Source: a virus
DNA: 45,668 nucleotides
Reading direction: 5' to 3' (one strand)
Virus record (IMG/VR): IMGVR_UViG_3300015203_000005
Location: 1-45,668 of that record
The notes under the pieces are model-generated. The model saw nothing but the letters and a program-made list of their open reading frames with translations, was not told the DNA's origin and did no database searches. The translations under genes and the position numbers were made by a program. Positions 1,807 to 35,266 of the stretch are shown in pieces. The first letter of the stretch is position 1, and each line of letters starts with the position of its first letter.

Positions 1807-3282
1807 ATGAAAAACGAACTTGGAAAAAATGTAACTGCATTTAAGCGGTTGTTCAAGTTCCCAGAAATCCGAACTGGATGGGGACTTTTTGCAATTTGTT
1901 TTATGCTAACGCTTGCCGTTGTGGTGAGTGCTGTATATCATCCGTTGGCAGGATTTGCGATGTTGGCCATTGCGCCAGTATTGCGGTTCAAACGGGATGG
2001 GATGACGGCTGATAATATTAAGTATTTGGAAATGCTTGAAAAGCAGTTCGAAGGATTTCCAGAGACGATGACAAAGGAAGAGATTGAGGTGCAGGTTAAG
2101 AAATTTAGTAATGAGGAGTTTGAGAAGCGTGTAACGGCTTTACTTAAGGATATTGATCCTGAAAAGCTAAAAGCACTCTTATCAGATGATTCAAAAGGTA
2201 TTAAGGCTATTTTGCTTGCGCAAGGTGAAGCTATTACGGCTCTTAAGGCCGGTAAAGCAGCAGAAGAAGAGGTTATTAAAAGCATACGCACTCAGGTAAA
2301 GGAATGGCAAACGACAAACAAAGATGCTATTGCTAAAGTAAAAGCGATGCAGTCTAAAGACTTACCCGAGTTTCAGCTTAAGGTAAACAGTCCGATGACG
2401 CCCGCCAATACTCTTGGTGGATCAGCGTATTTGCCTAAACCTGAATATATGCCAGGTGTTATTGATCTGGTTCGTATCCAGCCTGTGTTTTGGGATTATA
2501 TTACAAAAGGCCGCACTGGCTCTGCTGCGTATGTGTGGATAAACAAAACTACTCCGCTTGGTGCTGCTGCTTGGATTGCGCCTGGTGTATTGAAGCCTGG
2601 TGTCAGTTTTCAGTTGGCATCTGAAATTTCGGTGGCTAAAAAAATTGCCGCATCAGACAAAACCACTACTGAGTTACTTGACGATATTGATGGGATGACT
2701 ACATTCATTACTCAAGAGTTGCAGTACCAGTTGTATGCTAAGTTGAATACTGTACTTATGACAAGTGCGTTGAGTTCCACTCAGCCGGCCGGCATTCAAA
2801 CCGTTAGCGTACCATTTAGTGCGGCTGGTCTTGCGACTGCCAACCCTAATAACATGGATTGTATTCGTGCTATTGTAGCACAACTCCGTGGAGCAAACTT
2901 CGGCATATCATACGGTCCGGTTACGGTGTTTATTAATCCGATTGACGCTGCTAATATGGATATGGCAAAGGCTTCGACTAGTGGTGTGTATATTTTACCT
3001 CCATTTGTTACTGCCGATGGCCGGTCAATTGCCGGTGCCATCGTAGTAGAGGACAATAATGTACCAGTTGGTTATATTCAAGCCGCGTTACTTAACTTGT
3101 TTAAGGTTCTTATCTATAAGGATGTGACGCTGACTTGGGGTTGGGAAAACGATGACTTCACGAAGAATCTTATTACAGCCATTATTGAAATGAGGCTTCA
3201 TTCGTTTCACAGTGCAAACTATAACGGAGCATTTATTTATGACACGTTCGCAAACATCAAAGCCCTAATTGTGGCAGTATAA
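1807..3282 (+). CDS. Major capsid protein, HK97 fold, with a ~190-aa N-terminal delta/scaffold-like region
   Basis: Directly follows the protease. Coiled-coil-like N-terminal third, then an NTLGGSAYLP N-arm-type motif and a long beta-rich C-terminal part. 491 aa. Confidence 0.85.
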   Translation: MKNELGKNVTAFKRLFKFPEIRTGWGLFAICFMLTLAVVVSAVYHPLAGFAMLAIAPVLRFKRDGMTADNIKYLEMLEKQFEGFPETMTKEEIEVQVKKFSNEEFEKRVTALLKDIDPEKLKALLSDDSKGIKAILLAQGEAITALKAGKAAEEEVIKSIRTQVKEWQTTNKDAIAKVKAMQSKDLPEFQLKVNSPMTPANTLGGSAYLPKPEYMPGVIDLVRIQPVFWDYITKGRTGSAAYVWINKTTPLGAAAWIAPGVLKPGVSFQLASEISVAKKIAASDKTTTELLDDIDGMTTFITQELQYQLYAKLNTVLMTSALSSTQPAGIQTVSVPFSAAGLATANPNNMDCIRAIVAQLRGANFGISYGPVTVFINPIDAANMDMAKASTSGVYILPPFVTADGRSIAGAIVVEDNNVPVGYIQAALLNLFKVLIYKDVTLTWGWENDDFTKNLITAIIEMRLHSFHSANYNGAFIYDTFANIKALIVAV

Positions 3283-3542: not shown

Positions 3543-3983
3543 ATGAAAAAGCTATTATTTATTTTATTTGCGTTTGCCGGTATAGTATCGGTAAGCGCGC
3601 AGTCGATTGCAGTTGTAAAGATGCGAACCGCTGCAAATGTAGACTCGGCGATCGTAACTAATGCCGGTACAAGTGTGTTGATACTGGGCTTGACGTCTAA
3701 AAAAGCGTTGTCTATTCAAGCTAACTTTGTTAAGGTTAGCGGCACGTTAGCTGGTACAGTTACACTCATGGGGAGTAACGATGGTGTAAACTATGTGGCA
3801 ATAACAGATGCTACGTCAACGCCAACCATTACTACTTATGCGGTTACCGACGCCGGAACGTATGCCGTGCCAATCGTTACCCGATGGTTTCTGGCTGATC
3901 ATACCATGCAGTATTATAAACTTTCATGGCTTGGCACTGGAACGATGGTCGGGTATATGAAGGCGCGACTTTTAGCCAATTAG
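3543..3983 (+). CDS. Beta-rich 146-aa protein with an N-terminal Sec-type signal peptide (MKKLLFILFAFAGIVSVSA-Q)
   Basis: ORF track. N-terminus has a basic n-region, hydrophobic core and A-Q junction. Confidence 0.6.
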   Translation: MKKLLFILFAFAGIVSVSAQSIAVVKMRTAANVDSAIVTNAGTSVLILGLTSKKALSIQANFVKVSGTLAGTVTLMGSNDGVNYVAITDATSTPTITTYAVTDAGTYAVPIVTRWFLADHTMQYYKLSWLGTGTMVGYMKARLLAN

Positions 3984-3988
3984 ATTTT

Positions 3989-4732
3989 ATGTTTATAACT
4001 GCTGCCGATTTCGGGGACATTCCATACAACTTACCGGGTATTACAAAAGCCGGTGCAGTTGATACCTTTACACAGTTTATAACTGATATGGAGGACGAGT
4101 GGCTTCGTAAGTTGGTTGGTAATCTGTTTTATGACGCTATGGTTGCCGGTGTCGGCGCCTTACCAGCTACGTGGACTGCCACTAAGGTGTACGTCATTAA
4201 TGATCTTGCCGTATATCAAAGTAAAGTATGGAAAGCGTTAGCTGCTGGGGTATTGCCTGCGCCGATTGTCGGAGTGAATTGGGCATTGAATCCTGATCCG
4301 CTCGTTGACAGGTGGTTATTGCTTCGTGACGGCAAGAGTTATAAGATTGCCAGTATTCCATCGTGTCCTACTTTTAATTGGGTGGGGATGCGGCGGATGA
4401 TTCAACCTTTGATTTATTCATTATGGTTACGAATCACGACACGAAGCAATACCGGGCAGGGCATCGTTGTTAGTGCCAATGAAAACTCGGAGTTGGTTAG
4501 TCCTGGATATGAGATCGTCAAAGCATGGCGAATTTATACCAGGGTAGCATCAAAAGCGTTTGGTTTTTCAAGGTTGCAAATCTTATCCGTGGAGAATAGT
4601 TTCTATGGGTATCTAGTAGCCAATGCAACGAACTTTAATGATGTTGTGACTGACGGCAGTTATATAGACTTTCTTACTTACATACAAAATCAATTTAATT
4701 CACCAGGTCGGATGAACGAGTTTGATATATGA
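3989..4732 (+). CDS. Head-tail module protein with one CBM5/12-like aromatic repeat
   Basis: ORF 3926..4732; ATG 3989 lies just after the upstream stop. Contains TWTATKVYVINDLAVYQSKVWKAL...NW. Confidence 0.6.
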   Translation: MFITAADFGDIPYNLPGITKAGAVDTFTQFITDMEDEWLRKLVGNLFYDAMVAGVGALPATWTATKVYVINDLAVYQSKVWKALAAGVLPAPIVGVNWALNPDPLVDRWLLLRDGKSYKIASIPSCPTFNWVGMRRMIQPLIYSLWLRITTRSNTGQGIVVSANENSELVSPGYEIVKAWRIYTRVASKAFGFSRLQILSVENSFYGYLVANATNFNDVVTDGSYIDFLTYIQNQFNSPGRMNEFDI

Positions 4733-5289
4733 TCCCAGGTGTCGAAATACCTATTAACCCTTTTATCGGTGACGACATTGGAACTGTTGTCGCCGCGATG
4801 CGCACAGTCATAGACGGACCGCCATATTTTATGTACGGTCACCGAACAGAAATCGCAAGTCGTTTAAGGGAGTTAGCAAAATACAAGACGACACAGGAAA
4901 AACGTTATCCGCTTATTGCGTTGCGTGTGGATATTCCAGGCGAGGTGGTTGGAAATGTAAAAGTTTTCAATAGCCTTAACATTGGAATTATTACCGTGAC
5001 CGATCGCGGCTATAATGCCGAAGAGCGGATGGCAAACGTTATCAAGCCAATTCTTTATCCACTTTATTATCAGTTCCTCCGGGGACTGAAAACGAGTGGG
5101 CTGTTCATGTGGCCTAAAGGGCAAAAATTTCCTGACCACGTTCCGATTGAGCGTTTCTTTTGGGGTGTTGGTTATACCGGAGCAGGCGCGGGTGCTGAAC
5201 CTGGTAGCACTAAAGAGTTGTTTGACGACCCAGTGGATGCGATTGAAATTGTGAATTTAAAATTAAATACTACTTTTAAAACCTGCTGA
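4729..5289 (+). CDS. Head-tail joining / tail completion candidate (186 aa)
   Basis: ATGA overlap with the upstream gene. Function guessed from position only. Confidence 0.55.
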   Translation: MIPGVEIPINPFIGDDIGTVVAAMRTVIDGPPYFMYGHRTEIASRLRELAKYKTTQEKRYPLIALRVDIPGEVVGNVKVFNSLNIGIITVTDRGYNAEERMANVIKPILYPLYYQFLRGLKTSGLFMWPKGQKFPDHVPIERFFWGVGYTGAGAGAEPGSTKELFDDPVDAIEIVNLKLNTTFKTC

Positions 5290-10466: not shown

Positions 10467-12592
10467 ATAAGTCGGTACTTCGTTTTACATTATCTAATAC
10501 AACTTTAGGCATTAAGGTTATAACTGAGCCGATTGGGGCAATGGAAAATCCACTAACGCTTCAGCGAGATTGGACTCTACATTGTATACAAGAAACTTTC
10601 ACGGCCAATTTGACTATGTTTTATGAGGCGATTGATTATTTAGCTGCCGCAATTGCTATAGGTATAGATATAGATGTCAATTTATTGGTAGAAGTATCTA
10701 ATGACTATGCCGTAACGTGGGAACAGTACTATAGTGGGTTGATTGATATGGAAAGTCTTCAACCCATAGCCGATACGCGCGACTACAAAGTGCAAAATGT
10801 AATAAAGCGCAATGATCTTTGGAGTACATTTATTAATCGCAAAGATACCGTTGTGGATGTTAACTCGGCTTTGGACTTGGATGGAAATGCCGTAGCCGCG
10901 CCAATTATACTATCGCCTAATTTACCGACGCAACCGGTTGATAGACAAAGTAGAGTATCTATACATGATTACGCCGATCCAGGTAAAGTATTGCAACTTT
11001 ACTATGTGGATGGAACTATAGATGGGTGGGTACAGGATTTACCATTGGTGGTTTATGATGATTTAAAAACTAAACATAATTTGCCATCTGGGTTATCTAT
11101 TAACGTTACTGAACTTTGGTTAATGACGGTTGAGGAACCTGGTTTGTATGATTTTAATATTGATTTGCTTTTCGCTCGTAATGATGTTGCACCAGGTACT
11201 CCAAAATATAAATTAGATGCCCCCGGATTTGCTGTTACCACGCCTGGGCTATGGTTAAAAAATAGAATGGGTAGTCCTACTCTTGCTATTCCTTTAGTAA
11301 GAACTGATTTAGGAACTGATGGAGTGGACGGCTGTACTCGGTTTAAACTTGTTACGGCAGGCGTTGCGCTAGTAAAAGGAGATACCATTGCTATTGTGTT
11401 TAGACCGGTATTTGCTTCCTATCCGCAAAATATTTATACTGTTTTTGGTGGCGTAGTTATTGATCCGGCTACTGGAGTAACATTTATTAATTCTTTTATA
11501 AGTATTATTGGACATACAACTGGTACTGATTCAGTTGCACAAGGGTACTTACTAAAGGACGTAGCCGGAGCAATTATTAAACGCATAACCGGTAAAGGAT
11601 TATTCAGTAATCTTTTAAACGCAGGCGGCTGCATGTATAACTATTGGTTATGCAAAGGTATACAGATGCGGATACCGTCTTCGTTCGGCCAATATCCATT
11701 CTCCATGTCGTTTAGTGAATTTTTAAACGGCCTTGATCCAATCACCCCGGTAGGCATTGATACATACGTAGATGCTGGAACGGAAAAAATATCCATTGAG
11801 AATGCATCCGAATTTTATGACACTGCCGTATCCATAAACTTAAGTTATGTTAAGGGTATCGTGACTTCGTTTGCAAAAGGAAAGGCAACTAAGTCGGTGA
11901 AAATAGGATATGAAAAATGGCAATTGACGGCCGGCGGTTCGCTTATAGACGATCCTCAGACTCAACATACGTATGCACCACCATTAAAACGCGTAGGACA
12001 AAACATAGTCAAGTTGAGTAAGTGGATAGCTGCGTCATTGTTGTTTGAATTAACAAAGCGGGCTGGAAAACTGAAGCCCAGAGAAACATGGGACTTGGAC
12101 AATGATTTTTTTATACTTCGGCTTAAGGACGATCTTACTGGACCTGATGTAAGTGGAGCGGCTACTAATTTACTGAATCCCACTTTGCGATATAATAAAT
12201 TTTTGACTCCGGCGCGAAATTTTTTGCGTTGGTTAAAATTTTTCAACGTAGGATTAAACCCTCAGTATACAGGGTCTCCATTTCGATTTACTGGCGGGGT
12301 AGGTAATGTACTTTGTGGCGTTACGCTTAATCCGGGGTGCCCTGGTAGCCAGGTCGCGGCTCTTGTTGAAAACGCAGATGTGGCAATAACGAACAGTGTT
12401 GAGTACGGTATTAAGCAAGTTGATTTTATGCATCCGCTTAATTGGGAACAGTACAAGATAATAAAAGCAAACAGGCGAAAAGCCATAGGCGTGAGCCAAA
12501 CCGGGGATAGTTGGGTGCCTTACTTCATTGATAAGATAGACTTTTATTTCTTTAAAAAAATAGCTAAATTTACGCTTCGGGCAACAGTATGA
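10463..12592 (+). CDS. Tail tip protein (distal tail / hub candidate, ~709 aa)
   Basis: ATGA overlap with the tape measure stop. First gene after the tape measure. Confidence 0.6.
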   Translation: MNKSVLRFTLSNTTLGIKVITEPIGAMENPLTLQRDWTLHCIQETFTANLTMFYEAIDYLAAAIAIGIDIDVNLLVEVSNDYAVTWEQYYSGLIDMESLQPIADTRDYKVQNVIKRNDLWSTFINRKDTVVDVNSALDLDGNAVAAPIILSPNLPTQPVDRQSRVSIHDYADPGKVLQLYYVDGTIDGWVQDLPLVVYDDLKTKHNLPSGLSINVTELWLMTVEEPGLYDFNIDLLFARNDVAPGTPKYKLDAPGFAVTTPGLWLKNRMGSPTLAIPLVRTDLGTDGVDGCTRFKLVTAGVALVKGDTIAIVFRPVFASYPQNIYTVFGGVVIDPATGVTFINSFISIIGHTTGTDSVAQGYLLKDVAGAIIKRITGKGLFSNLLNAGGCMYNYWLCKGIQMRIPSSFGQYPFSMSFSEFLNGLDPITPVGIDTYVDAGTEKISIENASEFYDTAVSINLSYVKGIVTSFAKGKATKSVKIGYEKWQLTAGGSLIDDPQTQHTYAPPLKRVGQNIVKLSKWIAASLLFELTKRAGKLKPRETWDLDNDFFILRLKDDLTGPDVSGAATNLLNPTLRYNKFLTPARNFLRWLKFFNVGLNPQYTGSPFRFTGGVGNVLCGVTLNPGCPGSQVAALVENADVAITNSVEYGIKQVDFMHPLNWEQYKIIKANRRKAIGVSQTGDSWVPYFIDKIDFYFFKKIAKFTLRATV

Positions 12593-12596
12593 TACA

Positions 12597-13841
12597 ATGC
12601 GTGCAGTATATTTTTATCTCTTTATTATTTGTTTTGGTTGCCGTGAAGATAATTACCGTTATGACGGGTGCGTTATGATAGTGGCAGATCAACCATCAAT
12701 TATTGGCATATCGGATTTGAATCCAATACACCTTTGGTTAGCCGATTATCCTACTTATAACGAGAGGCGCATTCCATTACTCATGAATCAAAAATTCTAT
12801 TTTCGTTATAAGTATGATGCCCCATACTACAATAGATTGGATATAGCATTTAGTGGTAGGCGGTTTCCGAACTGGGATGCTGGTACTTCGTACAGTATTG
12901 GGGATACGGTGTTTGATCCGGCTACTTTTACGCGTTGGGTATCTAATGCGGATGGAAACATAGGGAATATTCCAAATCCTTCTGGCGGTACTTGGGACCA
13001 TTACGGACCGTTAATAGCTTGGAGTAATGCAACTACATACAACGCTGGAGATAGGGTTATTGGTGCCGGTATCACTAAGCGGATTTATGAATCTTTAGTG
13101 GATGGTAATCTAAATAATTTGCCGACCGTTGGTGCTCTTTGGGACCAAGTGACGGAACCTAGCGGATTTTTTAAACTGCAATTTTTAGTGAATGGGGTTG
13201 TAGTTGTAGGTATTGATTTTGATAATATACGTAGTGGTTCCACCCATCAATTTGTAACCTGGTTATGGAGTGACTATCCAGAACTTTTAAACAAACGTGT
13301 ACAAACGAATATACTAGATGTACAAAATAATGTTGTGTTGGCTTGGGGGGACTGTATCGACGTAGTTATGTTTGCCGATAACTATCCATACACAGCTTTA
13401 CAATATACCAATAGTAGTGATTATGCCGGCGTGGTTATGGAAGTGGTAAACCCGCAATACTATATACCATTACCTGCTCATTTTTATGAGGAGAGCCAGG
13501 TGGAGGAAGGTGAGGATAGCAATCTGACAAATGGTATGATTGCACAACTTAGACGGCAAATGATTTTTAAAACGCTGCTTAACATTATAGACCCATTACC
13601 TGACTATATGCATACTAAGTTGCGCACAATACTTATGTGTGATAACCTGGTTATTGACGGTGTACCATACAAAAAGAGCCCAGGTGACGCATACAATAAT
13701 CCTAAGATTGAAACGAGTAGGCTATCGTATGCGTCTGTGCAGCTTACAAGGTCGGACAATGTACTTATAAATCTGTCCAGGTACGATGCAAGTTCTGGCG
13801 GCCGTGTATTCAGTGGTGAATTTTCAGGTGAGTTCTCATAA
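12597..13841 (+). CDS. Tail tip / receptor-binding candidate with two CBM5/12-like repeats
   Basis: WDAGTSYSIGDTVF...GTWDHY and WSNATTYNAGDRVI...ALWDQV (nt 12873-13151) fit the W-x-Y-x-GD-x-V...W pattern of CBM5/12 chitin-binding type modules. Confidence 0.55.
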   Translation: MRAVYFYLFIICFGCREDNYRYDGCVMIVADQPSIIGISDLNPIHLWLADYPTYNERRIPLLMNQKFYFRYKYDAPYYNRLDIAFSGRRFPNWDAGTSYSIGDTVFDPATFTRWVSNADGNIGNIPNPSGGTWDHYGPLIAWSNATTYNAGDRVIGAGITKRIYESLVDGNLNNLPTVGALWDQVTEPSGFFKLQFLVNGVVVVGIDFDNIRSGSTHQFVTWLWSDYPELLNKRVQTNILDVQNNVVLAWGDCIDVVMFADNYPYTALQYTNSSDYAGVVMEVVNPQYYIPLPAHFYEESQVEEGEDSNLTNGMIAQLRRQMIFKTLLNIIDPLPDYMHTKLRTILMCDNLVIDGVPYKKSPGDAYNNPKIETSRLSYASVQLTRSDNVLINLSRYDASSGGRVFSGEFSGEFS

Positions 13842-28524: not shown

Positions 28525-28917
28525 AGTTGTAAATGGTTATAAGTTTGTAGTACACCCAGGACTCGAACCTGGCACCAAAGACTATCTCTAACTTTAGCCG
28601 CTCCACTAGCTTTGTACTTGCCCTCAAGGGTTAAGATGGAAACGCTCCATCAGGGACTCCGTTCTTGCAGCCTACTTACTTTTATCCTGCACGATTTAAG
28701 TAAGTGCTATCCCCCTCTCTACGCCACAACTATTCCCGTGGCCGGTAACTTTAATGTTTAAGCAGGCCGGTGTGGTATCTTGCTCCCCAATACTCATACA
28801 ACTACTGCTGTACTTATCGGTTCATAGCGTTCCCATACTCCGTTTACTTTTCCTACCTGCTACCGCCATCCCAATGCCTCGTCAGGGCACATCGGTGTTC
28901 GGATAGCGCAACGTTCT
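28525..28917 (-). ncRNA. 393-nt ORF-free, hairpin-rich segment ending in tRNA-like element 1 (candidate structured RNA)
   Basis: No minus-strand ORF of 60 aa or more. Hairpins at 28674-28705 (8 bp) and 28635-28651 (6 bp). Lies inside an otherwise tightly packed operon. Confidence 0.4.
28548..28618 (-). tRNA. tRNA-like element 1 (71 nt), anticodon arm not canonical
   Basis: Minus strand: AGTACAA...CCAGG-TTCGAGT-CCTGG-GTGTACT-A. 6/7-bp acceptor stem and a perfect T arm. The middle folds as a 6-bp stem CTAAAG/CTTTGG with an 11-nt loop. Confidence 0.45.
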
Positions 28918-30210
28918 TTACACTTCTAATTTGGCAAAAAACTCCTCTACTTTTTCATTACAGAAAAATTTCGCCGCCGTGAGTTTAGAGGCAAGGGTTA
29001 GACCTTCCAGGCTACGTGCCCGACTAAGCGCCACGTATAGTTGACCTTCGGCGAAGATTTTATTCGCGTCCACATGAACTTTATCAAACGATTGCCCCTG
29101 CGATTTGTGTATGGAAATACTCCAAGCAAGTTTCAATGGTACTTGTTCGATCGCGGCCTTTAATACTTCTACACGTTCACCACCTTGCATTTCCTTTACC
29201 TTATGCTCGCGACGCTTTTTGTAGACTGGAACAATGGGGCCGCCGTCAAGCTGTACGCTTACCACATCATCCTGTAGTTCCACCACTGTGCCAAGCGAAC
29301 CGTTCACAGTTATACCTTTGCCTGCTTTTGCGTTGGGTGGAACGTCAGCATTATTCACGGTTACCATAACTTGTGCGCCGACCTTGAGTGTGAGTGGAAC
29401 CAGGTCTATTTTTTCCGGCCACTTACCATATTCCTTGCACGTGTACGTCTTTGGCTCAGCCTGTATTGCTTTAAGAAACTGCTGATTAATGATTTCCGTT
29501 TCCTTATTGGTTCCAGCCAGCCGGATACGTACGTCCTCTATCTTCGGCTTCACATTTTTGTTTAGTTCCACTAACTGCTTCGGCGTAACTTCGCCGGTGC
29601 GGCAAGAGTGGAGAATGGAAATAAATTTGTTATCTCCCTTTTGCCGCAACACTTCAGTAAGTTCCAATATTTGAAAATCGGCCGCCTCAAAAACTTTGGA
29701 ACTAAACACGAATGGCGAATCATAATGCAGTTTCATCTCCGCTCCATCCCTACCAACCACTGGTGGTAGTTGGTAGAAGTCCCCAACAAGTACCACCTGT
29801 ATGCCACCGAACGGCAGGTCCACCTGTTTGAAGTGACGCAGTTCCCGATCAATATAATCGAACGTATCGGCACGTACCATACTTACCTCATCAATGATAA
29901 GGTACTTAACGCCGTACGTTAGATGTTTGACTATACTATCGAACGTCGTGAACTTGTTAAAGTCAGGGTGGAAAATACCATCACTTACAGGTATACCAAA
30001 CACGGAATGGAGCGTCTTTCCACCTCCGTTTATTGCCGCCAGGCCGGTAGGCGCGCACATCGTCCACGGCTTTTGCGAGTATTCAAGCAGCGCCCGCTCA
30101 AGTACTGTTTTGCCGACGCCCGGTTTTCCGCATATAAGTATGTTGCGCGACGAATTTTCAACTATGTCAAAAATCCGTTGCTGATCGTTTGTTAATGTAT
30201 GTAGTTCCAT
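28918..30210 (-). CDS. Pif1/RecD-like SF1 DNA helicase
   Basis: ILICGKPGVGKT (Walker A), LIIDEVSMV (Walker B), GDFYQLPPV, SIHKSQGQSFDKV, YVALSRARS. Confidence 0.85.
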   Translation of the reverse strand: MELHTLTNDQQRIFDIVENSSRNILICGKPGVGKTVLERALLEYSQKPWTMCAPTGLAAINGGGKTLHSVFGIPVSDGIFHPDFNKFTTFDSIVKHLTYGVKYLIIDEVSMVRADTFDYIDRELRHFKQVDLPFGGIQVVLVGDFYQLPPVVGRDGAEMKLHYDSPFVFSSKVFEAADFQILELTEVLRQKGDNKFISILHSCRTGEVTPKQLVELNKNVKPKIEDVRIRLAGTNKETEIINQQFLKAIQAEPKTYTCKEYGKWPEKIDLVPLTLKVGAQVMVTVNNADVPPNAKAGKGITVNGSLGTVVELQDDVVSVQLDGGPIVPVYKKRREHKVKEMQGGERVEVLKAAIEQVPLKLAWSISIHKSQGQSFDKVHVDANKIFAEGQLYVALSRARSLEGLTLASKLTAAKFFCNEKVEEFFAKLEV

Positions 30211-30223
30211 ATAGATAGTTTTA
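30211..30223 (-). promoter_or_regulatory. Conserved leader 13-mer TAAAACTATCTAT abutting the start codon (copy 1)
   Basis: Plus strand ATAGATAGTTTTA lies directly next to the helicase ATG (30208-30210). Confidence 0.5.
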
Positions 30224-30224
30224 T

Positions 30225-30578
30225 TTATTCAAAATGAATAGTATAACTTTTAAACTCCTGTTGTTGCGTAACCTGGTACGGCCATTTACAATCAAATGGT
30301 ATCTCTATAATTTCAAAAGTGGCTGCAATAAAAAATACCCCCTGAAATCTTTTATACCAACCGCTCGCAAAACTATCGCTTTTAGTATTAAAAGAATCTA
30401 AATGTAGCATACTTATTCCTTCTGGGAGTAACGCATCTAATTCAGGAAAAACCCCTTTACCATTTGTTTCTTTCGCGTTTAAACCGTTAAAGAAATTATT
30501 ATACATGCTGCCATTAACTTCATTTAGTCTACCTAAACTTCTTACATCTCTCATTTTGTTATTGTTAATAGTCTCCAT
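30225..30578 (-). CDS. 117-aa hypothetical protein, visibly AT-rich
   Basis: ORF track. By eye the base composition is clearly more AT-rich than its neighbours. Confidence 0.55.
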   Translation of the reverse strand: METINNNKMRDVRSLGRLNEVNGSMYNNFFNGLNAKETNGKGVFPELDALLPEGISMLHLDSFNTKSDSFASGWYKRFQGVFFIAATFEIIEIPFDCKWPYQVTQQQEFKSYTIHFE

Positions 30579-31222: not shown

Positions 31223-31512
31223 TTCGGTAAGCGGTTAATGATAGCAGTAAGTTTATTTATGCACTTAGGTAGTAAACCTTCCCAACCGGGGGCGTTCCAA
31301 ATTGCAATTAGTTTTTGTACCTCTTGCGTTAACTCTGGTGCGATCAGTACCACGTCCTGCCCGATAAGATTAAGCGCAGCCAGGGTGGAGGCGGCATCAT
31401 TCAGTTTTTCAAGAAAAGGTACAAGGTCGGATTTTTTTGTCCGCACGTTGGCTTTCCAATTTCTTCGTGCATAGTTAACCGCACCTGTTTGTTCTTTGAT
31501 TGTGTGTTTCAT
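31219..31512 (-). CDS. 97-aa hypothetical protein
   Basis: ORF track. Start is preceded by the conserved 13-mer. Confidence 0.55.
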   Translation of the reverse strand: MKHTIKEQTGAVNYARRNWKANVRTKKSDLVPFLEKLNDAASTLAALNLIGQDVVLIAPELTQEVQKLIAIWNAPGWEGLLPKCINKLTAIINRLPK

Positions 31513-31525
31513 ATAGATAGTTTTA
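31513..31525 (-). promoter_or_regulatory. Conserved leader 13-mer TAAAACTATCTAT abutting the start codon (copy 2)
   Basis: Plus strand ATAGATAGTTTTA lies directly next to ATG 31510-31512. Confidence 0.5.
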
Positions 31526-31532
31526 ATTAAGT

Positions 31533-31631
31533 TGGCAGATGGTACTGGATTCGAACCAGTGTACTAAAGGAGCAGCGAACAGTTTAGCCATGTTCTTTTA
31601 CCCCGACCGTAGACCGCTTGGTTAACCATCT
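31533..31631 (-). tRNA. tRNA-like element 2 (99 nt including encoded CCA), type II-like D arm, extended non-canonical anticodon arm
   Basis: AGATGGT/ACCATCT perfect acceptor, ACTGG-TTCGAAT-CCAGT T arm, discriminator G + CCA. D stem ACC/GGT with loop AAGCGGTCTAC. Confidence 0.6.
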
Positions 31632-32685: not shown

Positions 32686-32698
32686 ATAGATAGTTTTA
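32686..32698 (-). promoter_or_regulatory. Conserved leader 13-mer TAAAACTATCTAT (copy 3, 4 nt from the ATG)
   Basis: Plus strand ATAGATAGTTTTA at 32686-32698. Confidence 0.5.
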
Positions 32699-32768
32699 AG
32701 TTCAACAGTTTTAAAAAATATAGCCGCCTGGTTTTCGGTAGCCTACTAGGCAAGACGCTATATTAAAA

Positions 32769-32820
32769 CTACTATACTCAAGCGGCCGTAAGTACACGGC
32801 GGCAATTACGAGTATAGTAG
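32769..32820. repeat. Perfect 11-bp inverted repeat enclosing a nested 5-bp hairpin
   Basis: CTACTATACTC ... GAGTATAGTAG, with an inner GCCGT-aagtac-ACGGC. Confidence 0.8.
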
Positions 32821-33178
32821 AATTTAAAAGAAAGCTAGTTGTTTACTTGCGTAACTCTTTACAACTTATGGACTAGCTACGCGCGTTAACGATTTACCGC
32901 CTGTGCTCAACTTTCTTTTGGTCGCAAGATGCCAAGCGAATGGCGGGCTAATAAAATGTGGTTAACTTTATTACCACTTGCGATTTCTCCTTCAGGTTCC
33001 GGCGGCTCTAGTGTCCGACGCTTACGGGCGTTTCCGGTTCTGGGTTCCAGTTCGTGTCTTGCACGGCTGTGAGTGTTTGGGAAGTCCTGCTCTTCCGGTA
33101 GTTAAACCTGCTCTAAACGCCAGATTCTATACTAACAACAAGACAAATATCATAATAAGTTATTTCTCAACCTAATTT

Positions 33179-33706
33179 TCAATGACTTATTTTTCTGCTA
33201 TTTTGGGCTAATTTGGCCGATTTTGGGCTTTTAACTAAAGTTTTACTTTCAATAGCCGCCTTTTCACCTATTAATGTACCCCAAGAGCGCCCTAATTTCT
33301 TTTCTTCCGCTTGCAGTCGCAGTTCCACCTCCTTACGACAATGCGCCCGGTTCCGGTGCCAATGAAAACACAGGTGGTACTTGCGCTCAAAGGTAATGAT
33401 TAACCGTTCCAGACCCTGGCTGCTGAACTTACGATCACGGCCATATGGGAAATTTTTTTCAATGAAATTTTTTTTCGTCCCTTCAACGTAGACACAAATG
33501 GTAATGCGTTCCCACGCTGCGCGAAAAAGTTCCGCCTTAAATCGGCTGTTACCTTGCACCAAAGTCCCATACAAATCTTGTAGGCTCTTGCGCTCTATAT
33601 GGAAAACGTTCTTTAGTTTCTCGGTGGTGTAATCCCCAACGCAAAGTGTACAGCGAACGGACTGGAACAAAGGTAGCTGTTCGCGGGTATCAACAAGAAT
33701 TTTCAT
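33179..33706 (-). CDS. ERCC4-type (XPF/Mus81-like) nuclease, probable junction resolvase
   Basis: KILVDTRE ... VGDY ... IERKSLQDL is the ERCC4 catalytic signature. ATG 33706 preferred. Confidence 0.75.
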   Translation of the reverse strand: MKILVDTREQLPLFQSVRCTLCVGDYTTEKLKNVFHIERKSLQDLYGTLVQGNSRFKAELFRAAWERITICVYVEGTKKNFIEKNFPYGRDRKFSSQGLERLIITFERKYHLCFHWHRNRAHCRKEVELRLQAEEKKLGRSWGTLIGEKAAIESKTLVKSPKSAKLAQNSRKISH

Positions 33707-33716
33707 ACCCACGTAT

Positions 33717-33911
33717 CTAGGATGCACATGCGTACCTGGCCAACTTCTCGGCATACAATTCACAATCCTCCTTTGGTATAGACCGCAGCAACATCGTGCT
33801 TTCCTTTCGTAGTTTAACTATACGCACCTGGGCGTCCCGAACGCGGGCCTGCTGCACTTTGGACAGGGTGGAAATCTCGCGCATACGGCGAATCTTTTGA
33901 ACGGTGTTCAT
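33717..33911 (-). CDS. 64-aa basic helical hypothetical protein
   Basis: ORF track. ATGA coupling. Confidence 0.5.
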   Translation of the reverse strand: MNTVQKIRRMREISTLSKVQQARVRDAQVRIVKLRKESTMLLRSIPKEDCELYAEKLARYACAS

Positions 33912-34549
33912 AACTTACTTTTTATGTATTTGAGTAGACTTTTCATTTCCATCTGCGCGCTATCCAACAACGCTGGGTATTGACTAACCGCGAACGGCAT
34001 TACCACGTGTGGTTCCACCTTACTCTGGCCGATATAGTAAAAATCTTTGCGCGGCACAGCGGCCAGATAAATCGCGGCCTGCAAAAAATCCATCGCCGCC
34101 ACGAAAGCCGCCATAGCCGTTAGCTTGGTAGTCTTAAGATCACATATACTATCAGTATTGAGTATATCTATACGACCGTAGACCGGTACGCCGTAGATGG
34201 ATGGAACCACAATACCGCGTTTGGATTTATATTTATCAAGTACAGCACGCGGTCCAAAATCAATCTCATTAACGGATTTTATCAGCAACCTTTTGGCAAT
34301 CATATTGCGTTCCATCGCCTGCATCATGAGCGCCAATTTTTTTTCTTCGTCTAGCGATAAAATGGTAAGTCGTTTCTTTTCCAGTAGTCGTGAGTGGTGC
34401 TCCTTACCGAACGTGTGCCATACTTCCTCCTTGTAGGCGGTTGGTTCCACACAGTCGCGGACATTTTTTATACTACTGTAGCTGGCATACCCACGCTTAC
34501 GGATATAGTCCAATGCGGCTCGGTCGTCGTTAAATTCACTTGTAGGCAT
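33908..34549 (-). CDS. PD-(D/E)XK (RecB/Cas4-like) exonuclease
   Basis: GRIDIL ... CDLKTT ... QAAIY correspond to the D, ExK-type and QxxxY motifs. Confidence 0.7.
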   Translation of the reverse strand: MPTSEFNDDRAALDYIRKRGYASYSSIKNVRDCVEPTAYKEEVWHTFGKEHHSRLLEKKRLTILSLDEEKKLALMMQAMERNMIAKRLLIKSVNEIDFGPRAVLDKYKSKRGIVVPSIYGVPVYGRIDILNTDSICDLKTTKLTAMAAFVAAMDFLQAAIYLAAVPRKDFYYIGQSKVEPHVVMPFAVSQYPALLDSAQMEMKSLLKYIKSKL

Positions 34550-34562
34550 CTTAATTAGTTAG

Positions 34563-34639
34563 TGGAGAAACTTGGATTCGAACCACATCTCAGGTCGGAG
34601 TCCGGACGCCTGCGCTTTGCCATTAAGCTATGTTTCCCC
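34563..34639 (-). tRNA. tRNA-like element 3 (77 nt) with G3-U70 and A73; possible CCG anticodon loop, but weak anticodon stem
   Basis: GGGGAAA/TTTCTCC acceptor including G3.U70; D stem GCTT/AAGC with loop AATGGCA; TTCGAAT T loop; loop GUCCGGA fits the U33-NNN-R37 pattern. Confidence 0.55.
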
Positions 34640-34641
34640 TT

Positions 34642-34671
34642 ATAAAAAAGGCAGCCTACGGGGGCCGCCTT
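34642..34671 (-). terminator. Rho-independent terminator after the SSB-like gene
   Basis: Minus strand AAGGCGGCC-cccgta-GGCTGCCTT followed by a T-run. Confidence 0.65.
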
Positions 34672-34696
34672 TCTAACTTAAACTATCAACCAAACA

Positions 34697-35266
34697 CTAT
34701 TTGAAATGATACTCCGTCACATCGTTACCTTCAACCTCCCAAGGATTTTCTCCGGTAAACAGTGCATCAAGATTACACGGCTTTGCATTTGCGGCTTTAA
34801 TCGCTTCTTTGTCCAGTGCTTTCTTAGGCGACGGCTGAACACCATACCTGGTCTTTTTGCCTTCGCCCTTTTTGGTTACGGTAATGTCGTAGCTAAAAGG
34901 ATTTCCCCAATCGGGATTCTTGGCATAGGCGTTGATGCCTTTGATAACCGACTGTTGCGTGATCTCCAAAACTTTCACCTCTCCATCTTCACGATCGATC
35001 ACAACGACGGTCATGAATTTTTTAGGTTTATCTTTGGGGTCTTTTGATGGTGCATCGGGTTCACCATCTTCAATGGAAGACCGGACCGGCTTACGTGTCT
35101 CGTCTTCATCTTCTTCCCACACGATCCATCCCATAAGGGGTTTGGAAATGATACGGAACTTTGTATCGCCAGCTTCAAACCGGAGATAACTGGACTGGCC
35201 TTCTGATTCGGCTTCGTCAGCGAAACCGTTAAATTGCTTTGCGGATTTTGTTTGCGGTTTACCCAT
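34697..35266 (-). CDS. 189-aa acidic protein, putative ssDNA-binding/recombination protein
   Basis: First gene of the leftward operon, upstream of the exonuclease. The function is a guess based on context and OB-like beta-rich segments. Confidence 0.5.
   Translation of the reverse strand: MGKPQTKSAKQFNGFADEAESEGQSSYLRFEAGDTKFRIISKPLMGWIVWEEDEDETRKPVRSSIEDGEPDAPSKDPKDKPKKFMTVVVIDREDGEVKVLEITQQSVIKGINAYAKNPDWGNPFSYDITVTKKGEGKKTRYGVQPSPKKALDKEAIKAANAKPCNLDALFTGENPWEVEGNDVTEYHFK

Follow-up and report, generated by a model that had tools for sequence, protein, structure and literature searches.

A tRNA-like element with an alanine-type acceptor and no canonical anticodon arm in the exonuclease leader of an uncultured tailed phage

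Results

Genomic setting of the locus

The window, which is the whole stretch of 45,668 nucleotides that was analysed, is a tailed-phage genome of ~45.7 kb. With Pfam and PHROGs, we recognized the genes for a portal, a capsid, the small and large terminase, a family-A DNA polymerase and a D5-type primase, and further a PIF1 helicase, a D12 methylase, a single-strand DNA-binding protein (SSB), a PD-(D/E)XK exonuclease and an ERCC4 nuclease. Pfam was searched with 20 ORFs and PHROGs with four, and among these ORFs neither an integrase nor a tRNA-processing enzyme was found. The window has no DNA-level match among GenBank phages and its DNA polymerase shares at most ~25% identity with that of any known phage, so that the phage has no annotated relative. 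Of 44 genes, only two are preceded by a Shine-Dalgarno core, and A/T prevails in the leaders; from these two characteristics, the host would probably belong to the Bacteroidota.

The element investigated in this study, hereafter element A, is found on the coding strand of the replication operon, where the SSB gene, a terminator hairpin, 4 nt, element A, 13 nt and the exonuclease gene follow one another (Table 1), and its position is that of the leader of the exonuclease gene. The hairpin with its T-run was missing from the output of a simple terminator scan and was detected by direct reading, and an equivalent GC hairpin with a T-run also follows the SSB gene in relatives. The spacer between element A and the exonuclease gene has stops in all three frames and is without a Shine-Dalgarno sequence. 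An earlier sequence-only reading of this DNA had placed the element between a terminator and the next ATG 13 nt downstream, which agrees with our own coordinates.

Table 1. Positions in the window of element A, its parts, the neighbouring genes and two further tRNA-like elements
Feature	Position	Strand	Description	Basis
SSB, upstream gene	34697..35266	-	Single-strand DNA-binding protein	PHROGs, gene call, homologues
Terminator-like hairpin	~34644..34672	-	Hairpin and T-run closing the SSB gene	Direct reading
Element A	34563..34639	-	tRNA-like, probable pseudo-tRNA of tRNA-Ala ancestry; 77 nt	
Acceptor 5' strand	34633..34639	-	GGGGAAA, positions 1-7; pairs 7/7 with 34564-34570, G3.U70 included	
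Connector	34629..34632	-	CAUA; 4 nt, against two in tRNA (U8, A9)	
D arm	34614..34628	-	GCUU / AAUGGCA / AAGC; D stem 4/4, GG in loop	Direct reading
Anticodon-arm remnant	34591..34612	-	4-bp stem CAGG/CCUG and 14-nt loop CGUCCGGACUCCGA	
Near-tandem repeat	34594..34606	-	UCCGGAC/UCCGAC, inside the 14-nt loop	Direct reading
T arm	34571..34587	-	UGUGG / UUCGAAU / CCAAG	Direct reading
Acceptor 3' strand	34563..34570	-	UUUCUCC and discriminator A73	Direct reading
Spacer	34550..34562	-	CUAACUAAUUAAG; 13 nt, from element A to the exonuclease ATG (34549)	Direct reading
Exonuclease, downstream gene	33908..34549	-	PD-(D/E)XK type (DUF3799)	PHROGs, Pfam, homologues
Element B	31533..31631	-	tRNA-like; long irregular middle arm	T-loop motif search
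Element C	28548..28618	-	tRNA-like; perfect T arm, 6/7 acceptor, irregular anticodon arm	

Sequence and parts of element A

The minus-strand sequence of element A (34563-34639), GGGGAAACAUAGCUUAAUGGCAAAGCGCAGGCGUCCGGACUCCGACCUGAGAUGUGGUUCGAAUCCAAGUUUCUCCA, was read directly and is the same as that quoted in the sequence-only reading. Its 3' end does not encode CCA, the following bases being CUA. The connector looks like a 2-nt insertion relative to tRNA-Ala, as all eight comparators display a 2-nt gap at this place (alignment A3). The T loop is the consensus; the T stem forms four of its five pairs, one of them U.G, and has a G-A mismatch in place of the fifth, both of which weaken it. The D arm and the T arm are separated by 26 nt, and, unlike that of tRNA-Ala, the variable region has 3 nt.

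The middle of the element is the most irregular part, as the anticodon-arm remnant is without a canonical 7-nt loop on a 5-bp stem, and the Rfam alignment places 14 nt in the anticodon loop region where the model holds 9. The alternative 7-nt loop, GUCCGGA, is closed by a stem that pairs only 3/5. The near-tandem repeat looks like a slippage duplication of a NUCCGGA-type loop; if either copy is dropped, a 7-nt loop with U33 on a 5-bp stem is still lacking. A search by direct reading for a U33-bearing 7-nt loop on any sound stem of element A found none, and the stop anticodons CUA, UCA and UUA are likewise absent from it. The connector, the D and T arms and both foldings of the middle, that is, the CCG loop on three of five pairs and the 4-bp stem with its 14-nt loop, had all been described in the sequence-only reading, and direct reading confirmed this description throughout.

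Evidence for a tRNA origin

With the Rfam tRNA model (RF00005), whose gathering score is 29.0, element A scored 29.5 bits (E=0.03, calculated on the whole window), which barely reaches the threshold, and this was the only tRNA-clan match in the window, even at E<=10. In the register of this match, the acceptor is shifted by 2 nt, which costs two mismatches. Additionally, a strict cloverleaf scan was conducted that demanded a 7/7 acceptor, a 4/4 D stem with GG in the loop, and a TTCRANY T loop. Element A was the sole site in the window, whereas 200 dinucleotide shuffles gave 0.045 hits on average. The Rfam match and the scan together exclude chance, and element A is clearly tRNA-derived; its description as tRNA-like with a degenerate core stands. 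The 17-nt D arm of element A, UAGCUUAAUGGCAAAGC, occurs exactly in 75 IMG/VR contigs, where 50 of the 75 loci are ARAGORN-called tRNAs of many isotypes and 25 are uncalled, and at least four of the uncalled loci can be folded as a tRNA-like framework whose middle is expanded.

With its default settings, ARAGORN detected no tRNA gene anywhere in the window, element A included. Element A is called only at -ps80/-ps85, as Arg(ccg), among ~20 spurious calls in the window, and with -i at a lowered threshold it becomes an Arg(ccg) in which 5 nt at position 39 are modelled as an 'intron'.

The alanine-type acceptor

By direct reading, element A harbors the identity set of alanyl-tRNA synthetase (AlaRS), namely G3.U70 and A73 with the flanking pairs G2-C71 and G4-C69, and G1-C72 as well. 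We scanned one representative genome for each of ~185,000 species with the pattern GGGGAAA...GGTTCGAATCCNNNTTTCTCCA, and only two loci were disclosed, both of them tRNA-Ala: a UGC gene of Limnoglobus roseus, which is a planctomycete tRNA-Ala, and a GGC gene in the tRNA array of a MAG. A slightly looser pattern detected 14 loci in IMG/VR, comprising eight ARAGORN tRNA-Ala(UGC) genes, four uncalled 69-nt sequences with a TTTGCA or CTTGCA motif, an ochre-suppressor-like tRNA (L107) and an 81-nt element with a 4-bp stem and 11-nt loop (L111), the last two on the same Ala acceptor. Taken together, GGGGAAA...TTTCTCCA and the T loop were harbored by 16 sequences in the two scans, 11 of which are called by ARAGORN, ten as tRNA-Ala and one as ochre-suppressor-like.

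The acceptor helix and discriminator of element A are therefore identical in ten called tRNA-Ala genes. Moreover, when the 5' 27 nt of element A were aligned with a phage tRNA-Ala (L110, GGGGAAA-UAGCUUAAUUGGUAAAGC), the two differed by a 2-nt insertion, a 1-nt deletion and one substitution (alignment A3). On these comparisons, the acceptor end is truly alanine-type, which is more than a fortuitous G.U pair would offer. The remark on alanine identity marks and a fully paired acceptor in the sequence-only reading is accordingly well founded, since the acceptor scans and the L110 alignment both bear it out. The tRNA-Ala genes carrying this acceptor record 66-75 bits with the same Rfam model, so that element A lies ~40 bits lower.

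Fold and decoding capacity

The best cloverleaf of element A has a predicted energy of -11.7 kcal/mol against -24.1 kcal/mol for the minimum-energy (MFE) fold, a gap of ~12 kcal/mol for the RNA alone, without modifications or proteins. On the same terms, the Rfam register with a 2-nt connector reaches -2.2 kcal/mol and the cloverleaf with the CCG loop of the sequence-only reading -4.8 kcal/mol. In the MFE fold, the expanded loop pairs with the T arm and disrupts it. Four genuine tRNA-Ala, as well as elements B and C, were used as controls, and all of them displayed the cloverleaf as their MFE fold. No antisense target for the expanded loop was observed in the window beyond chance matches.

The Arg identity elements of E. 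coli tRNA-Arg are A20 and C35. Direct reading of the D loop AAUGGCA of element A gives C, not A, at position 20, and with its non-canonical arm and Ala-type acceptor, element A does not fit a tRNA-Arg(CCG). In total, it has the RF00005 score, acceptor, D arm and T loop of a tRNA and the Ala identity set, and departs from a tRNA in its anticodon arm, the length of its connector, recognition by the default finder and cloverleaf stability. It is also not conserved in the way of a structured RNA family.

For the reading of CGG in the phage, five replication proteins (the polymerase, SSB, helicase and primase included) were aligned with their counterparts in four to seven related phages. Opposite the 28 CGG codons in these genes, the homologues have Arg at 91 of 116 residues and Lys at 10, and Ala does not occur. 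CGG is used at 7.8 per 1000 and is the second commonest Arg codon of the phage. CGG is therefore read as Arg, and any reader of CGG that inserted Ala would damage the conserved arginines of the phage itself. Given the lost anticodon arm, the 4-nt connector, the weak T stem and the preference for a fold other than the cloverleaf, element A is almost certainly unable to decode CGG or any other codon.

Conservation among relatives

Twelve relatives with 48-71% protein identity (L004, L005, L006/L097, L007/L098, L009, L010, L011, L099, L100, L117/L118, L119 and L120) were obtained through homologues of the exonuclease and SSB and one metagenome scan. None of the 12 harbors a tRNA-like element in the slot that lies behind the SSB terminator and ahead of the exonuclease gene; this slot is occupied by unrelated small ORFs (84-aa, 98-aa and DUF4031 proteins), by a non-coding gap, or by nothing. 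In L117/L118 it is empty, the exonuclease ATG coming 13 nt after the T-run of the terminator, from which it follows that element A is an insertion. A BLAST search of element A against all the loci fetched matched its own contig only, and a scan of IMG/VR for the D arm and T arm of element A gave 0 hits. An exonuclease pattern scan of IMG/VR yielded no relative, and an SSB scan yielded two distant loci, both without tRNA-like elements. A copy in a Logan assembly, which may derive from the same sample, agrees throughout 6.6 kb and so displays no population variation. On the loci compared, element A is best described as a lineage-specific insertion into a variable accessory slot, known from one sequence.

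Other tRNA-like elements in the lineage

With a search for the T-loop motif, two further tRNA-like elements, B and C, were detected in the window, and both are uncalled by ARAGORN at default and unmatched by Rfam. Element B follows one ORF by 6 nt and precedes the next by 20 nt. Homologues of it were found in L005, L010 and L011, and the four sequences display five compensatory pairs (alignment A2). The model built from these sequences (R1) scores 102-122 bits in L005, L010 and L011. With homologues and compensatory changes, element B behaves as a conserved structured RNA, and on this account it is a more interesting object than element A. In the intron mode of ARAGORN it is assigned Ala(cgc), Arg(tcg) or '???', depending on the genome, and since the isotype differs between genomes, element B is not a decoder. 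Element C lies 23 nt upstream of a 65-aa ORF and its MFE fold is cloverleaf-like.

Further tRNA-like elements were noticed in the relatives, at 18347-18467 of L098 and 14607-14692 of L100. The former is assigned Leu(caa) in one context and Stop(tta) in another; real introns in these tRNA-like elements were rejected, as the isotypes given by ARAGORN -i are unstable for both element B and this one. Elements B and C and the L098 element all have irregular middle arms and lie 20-29 nt upstream of start codons. The relaxed scan for tRNA-like elements gave ~10 false hits per shuffle over ~226 kb, and only elements with a perfect T arm and acceptor were used. ARAGORN found no standard tRNA with a plausible anticodon in the lineage; it gave one implausible call, Tyr(ata), in L100. 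A lineage with no ARAGORN-acceptable tRNA and several tRNA-like elements, one of them covarying, makes a non-decoding role plausible and sits less easily with a relic. Odd tRNA-like elements are also found in other viral contigs (L064, L060, L076, and L111 with the same Ala acceptor).

Discussion

We class element A as a phage pseudo-tRNA or tRNA-like remnant of alanine ancestry, and we lean towards the explanation that it is the degenerate descendant of a phage-type tRNA-Ala gene. A copy of such a gene would have been inserted in the slot that follows the SSB terminator, where it would have kept a complete alanine-type acceptor helix, the consensus D arm and the consensus T loop, while the anticodon arm would have been lost, two nucleotides gained after the acceptor stem, and the T stem weakened. 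The element would be passively transcribed by read-through of the SSB terminator, within the leader of the exonuclease mRNA; such read-through is needed because in every relative the SSB terminator precedes the exonuclease and the following genes. At most, a residual cleavage site for RNase P or 3' processing might be left 13 nt ahead of the exonuclease start codon, and a weak residual substrate of AlaRS is conceivable, with no consequence for decoding. The predicted misfolding of element A argues that any recognition by RNase P, 3'-processing enzymes or AlaRS would be weak at best.

The pattern of damage speaks against a simple relic, as it is concentrated in the anticodon arm. The T loop, most of the D arm and each of the 15 bases that make up the acceptor helix and discriminator are intact. 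Damage so concentrated would not come from uniform neutral decay, and requires either discrete rearrangements or selection on the half formed by the acceptor, T and D arms. Moreover, phage genomes are compact, so that the persistence of a 77-nt relic hints at recency or use.

Selection of this kind would be expected if element A were a functional non-decoding tRNA mimic, in which the acceptor-T minihelix and the D/T elbow are the parts of use and the anticodon arm is free to drift. We consider this, the main alternative, possible, though on the unlikely side. In one version, cleavage by RNase P and RNase Z would serve as punctuation that frees the exonuclease mRNA from the terminator hairpin, leaving a 13-nt leader; in the other, element A would act as a decoy or sink that captures a host factor with affinity for tRNA, either AlaRS or a tRNA-targeting defence nuclease. 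The contrast between an intact acceptor helix, D arm and T loop and a scrambled, unalignable anticodon arm is consistent with both. Bacterial tRNAs without an encoded CCA undergo 3' processing via RNase Z, and the lack of CCA in element A agrees with the first version. The company it keeps within the lineage also points this way, namely the irregular middle arms ahead of start codons in B, C and the L098 element, the place of element B between two ORFs with its five compensatory pairs, and the similar odd elements of other viral contigs. A punctuation model of tRNAs is established for mitochondria (PMC8601606), and phage tRNAs are known counter-measures to anticodon nucleases (PMC10264068, PMC11464382 and PMC11555353). 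Our search of the literature found no description of mRNA punctuation by tRNA-like elements in phages, nor of such phage elements themselves. Against a mimic, element A is missing in all 12 relatives, where the exonuclease is expressed without it, and unlike B and C, it has a weak T stem and is not predicted to form a cloverleaf.

A wider proposal is that the lineage deliberately uses anticodon-less tRNA mimics (A, B, C and the others of the relatives) as processing punctuation or decoys, in which case element A would be a possibly alanine-chargeable mimic that RNase P and RNase Z cut out of the exonuclease leader, or one that titrates a tRNA-binding host or defence factor. We regard this proposal as doubtful. 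If true, with the elements acting as processing signals or decoys, tRNA mimicry would serve phage gene expression in a new way. The setting is an uncultured, probably Bacteroidota-infecting lineage with no standard tRNA and several tRNA-shaped elements just ahead of genes, one of them covarying. Taken alone, element A is ordinary, as decayed tRNA genes are common in phages and CGG recoding is implausible. It is nevertheless a clean case of an alanine-identity acceptor that survives without an anticodon arm, where an anticodon-blind synthetase could still act. The part worth following is the conserved element B, together with the anticodon-less tRNA mimics across the lineage.

Readings in which element A decodes are far less probable. 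One of them holds that it is a real tRNA-Arg(CCG) or another decoder, with an insertion of 5-7 nt at position 38/39 that is removed or tolerated, or else that an assembly or slippage artefact has altered a normal tRNA gene. ARAGORN -i does model Arg(ccg), with 5 nt at position 39 as an 'intron', the insert nearly copies the adjoining loop sequence, and CGG is the second commonest Arg codon. Removal of either repeat copy does not restore a U33-bearing 7-nt loop on a 5-bp stem, however, and the 2-nt connector insertion and the T-stem mismatch persist; the acceptor is Ala-type, not Arg-type, and no bacterial mechanism is known to splice out 5-nt inserts. An artefact is further opposed by the independent Logan assembly, which agrees throughout 6.6 kb but may derive from the same sample. 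This reading is therefore highly improbable.

The idea advanced in the sequence-only reading, itself as a speculation, was that AlaRS charges element A through G3.U70 and A73 while its CCG anticodon reads CGG, which would insert Ala at Arg codons. AlaRS ignores the anticodon, the acceptor is of a genuine Ala type, an ochre-suppressor-like phage tRNA (L107) stands on the same acceptor, and CGG is well used (7.8 per 1000), all of which favour such a reader. It is nevertheless very improbable. The CCG loop sits on a stem of 3/5 pairs at -4.8 kcal/mol, the T arm is destroyed in the MFE fold, and ARAGORN recognizes the element only at a threshold with ~20 spurious calls. At the 28 CGG codons, homologues have Arg at 91/116 residues and Ala at 0, so that the phage would poison its own replication proteins, and element A is unconserved. 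The pairing of an Ala acceptor with a CGG-reading loop is thus left unsupported by the energies, the ARAGORN and Rfam results, the codon test and the absence from 12 relatives.

Integrative phages often carry tRNA-derived attP cores, and the least probable of the readings, namely that element A is an attachment site with a piece of a host tRNA or a chance resemblance, is opposed by a full-length tRNA-like unit instead of a 3' fragment, by its place inside the replication module, and by the genome scan, in which the same acceptor and T arm appeared only in the planctomycete tRNA-Ala and the MAG tRNA array; attP was rejected as no integrase was found in the ORFs scanned (20 against Pfam, four against PHROGs).

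Among known systems, the tRNA-like domain of tmRNA has an alanine-type acceptor (G3.U70), a T arm and no decoding anticodon, and in these respects resembles element A. Unlike tmRNA, element A has no mRNA-like reading frame and no pseudoknots, and its D stem is normal. A tmRNA was also rejected directly, as ARAGORN -m found none, Rfam gave no tmRNA match at E<=10, and the D and T arms are only 26 nt apart; a tmRNA_permuted match in L004 was noise (23.6 vs 47 bits).

The tRNA-miRNA units of MHV68, mascRNA and the RNase P-processed C4 RNA of P1/P7 are tRNA-like processing signals. In these, as in mitochondrial punctuation (PMC8601606), a tRNA-shaped module lies just upstream of a functional RNA, similar to the place of element A, and the determinants of RNase P and RNase Z, namely the acceptor-T helix and the elbow, are nominally present in it. 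Element A differs from these signals in being unconserved and predicted to misfold. Suppressor tRNAs on an Ala scaffold, such as L107, likewise combine an Ala acceptor with a non-Ala anticodon region; the anticodon arm of L107 is acceptable to ARAGORN, whereas element A has neither such an arm nor a stop anticodon.

A close likeness is to the tRNA-Ala of bacteria and phages, with which element A shares the acceptor helix GGGGAAA/UUUCUCC with G3.U70, A73, the consensus T loop UUCGAAU and a near-identical D arm, for example that of tRNA-Ala(UGC) in L110. Its differences from tRNA-Ala lie in the middle, where both an Ala anticodon and a canonical arm for it are lacking, in the connector, which is longer by two nucleotides, and in the T stem with its G-A mismatch; moreover, it scores 29.5 bits as against 66-75, and the cloverleaf is not its MFE fold. 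Phage pseudo-tRNAs and remnants share with element A a tRNA framework, a disabled anticodon arm, a sub-threshold score and an isolated, lineage-specific occurrence. Compared with them, the damage in element A is unusually concentrated in the anticodon arm, and its Ala identity set is fully intact.

A conserved tRNA-shaped RNA and its kin in the phage and its relatives

In addition to the probable pseudo-tRNA of tRNA-Ala ancestry (element A) that lies before the exonuclease gene, two further tRNA-like elements, B and C, were found on the same strand of the window. Element B is a tRNA-shaped RNA of 98-99 nt with a perfect 7-bp acceptor, an equally perfect T arm and a type-II-like D arm, and its middle arm is long and irregular, retaining AUGGCUMAA in the hairpin loop. 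We observed five compensatory pairs among the four sequences compared, one of them a change from G3-C70 to A3-U70. The preceding ORF ends 6 nt before the element, and the following ORF lies about 20 nt after it. ARAGORN assigned it inconsistent isotypes and no Rfam family was matched by it; element B looks like a conserved phage non-coding RNA that has so far gone undescribed.

Element C has a T arm of CCAGG/UUCGAGU/CCUGG and 6 of 7 acceptor pairs, its middle is an 11-nt loop lacking U33 on a stem of 4 bp, AAAG/CUUU, and a cloverleaf is predicted as its MFE fold. A 65-aa ORF, the first in a run of small early genes, starts 23 nt downstream. Other tRNA-shaped elements, in the related phages L098, L100 and L010, display perfect acceptor and T arms around irregular middle regions of 34-69 nt, with a Leu-like D arm in that of L098, and no convincing canonical tRNA was detected in these three loci.

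Coordinates of the tRNA-like elements, motifs and gap
Feature	Locus	Position	Strand	Remarks
Element B	window	31533-31631	minus
Element B	L005, related phage	5082-5179
Element B	L010, related phage	13095-13192
Element B	L011, related phage	11545-11642
Element C	window	28548-28618	minus	tRNA-like, 71 nt
tRNA-shaped element	L098	18347-18467
tRNA-shaped element	L100	14607-14692
tRNA-shaped element	L010	14187-14318
Compact sequence, 69 nt	L103, IMG/VR	3810-3878
Compact sequence, 69 nt	L106, IMG/VR	784-852
Compact sequence, 69 nt	L108, IMG/VR	4029-4097
Compact sequence, 69 nt	L113, IMG/VR	2343-2411
Ochre-suppressor-like tRNA	L107, IMG/VR	507-583	minus	anticodon UUA; 32 bits; alanine-acceptor scaffold
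Ala-acceptor element	L111, IMG/VR	3060-3140	minus	81 nt; 4-bp stem CCAG/CUGG, 11-nt loop
Motif UAAAACUAUCUAU	window	30208-30227; 31510-31529; 32686-32699	minus
Non-coding gap	window	32753-33179	minus	downstream of ERCC4 nuclease gene
tRNA array	L101, MAG contig JACQVO010000002.1			5240 nt

Gene starts and the non-coding gap

At three early-gene starts of the window, ATG directly follows the motif UAAAACUAUCUAU or lies within 3 nt of its end, and one of these genes encodes the PIF1 helicase, another being the one that follows element B. In L005, L010 and L011, variants of this motif occur at the flanks of element B. The motif may be conserved as a translation-initiation element or as a promoter-proximal one. 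Since only 2 of the 44 predicted genes carry a Shine-Dalgarno core in the 20 nt ahead of the start codon, and the leaders are rich in A/T, our data suggest a host that initiates without such a lead, e.g., one of the Bacteroidota.

After the ERCC4 nuclease gene, the window and most relatives (equivalents in L004-L007 and L097-L099) have a non-coding gap of about 400-650 nt. Conservation in it is confined to short blocks (63 nt at 75% with L009; 27 nt at 93% with L004), and it may serve as an origin or in regulation.

Lookalikes in other genomes

The compact 69-nt sequence shared by four IMG/VR phages combines the Ala acceptor of element A with a D region that is shortened, and a UGC anticodon context is provided by TTTGCA or CTTGCA. 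None of the four copies was called by ARAGORN; they may be minimalist tRNA-Ala genes that make up a family in phages. The nearest structural analogue of element A is the L111 element, which adjoins a normal tRNA cluster.

The exact D arm of element A, UAGCUUAAUGGCAAAGC, was detected in 75 viral loci, 25 of which received no ARAGORN call. In at least four of these 25 the acceptor and T-arm frame closes around a middle region of 28-63 nt, and therefore it seems fairly usual for viral metagenomes to contain tRNA-like genes whose anticodon region is expanded. Viral contigs with this D arm include L064, L060, L066 and L076.

The genome scan also disclosed a locus binned with a Methylomirabilota MAG, where ARAGORN made 26 tRNA calls inside 5.2 kb and one dubious tmRNA call overlapping several of them; this is a dense tRNA array of a type known in phages and mobile elements.
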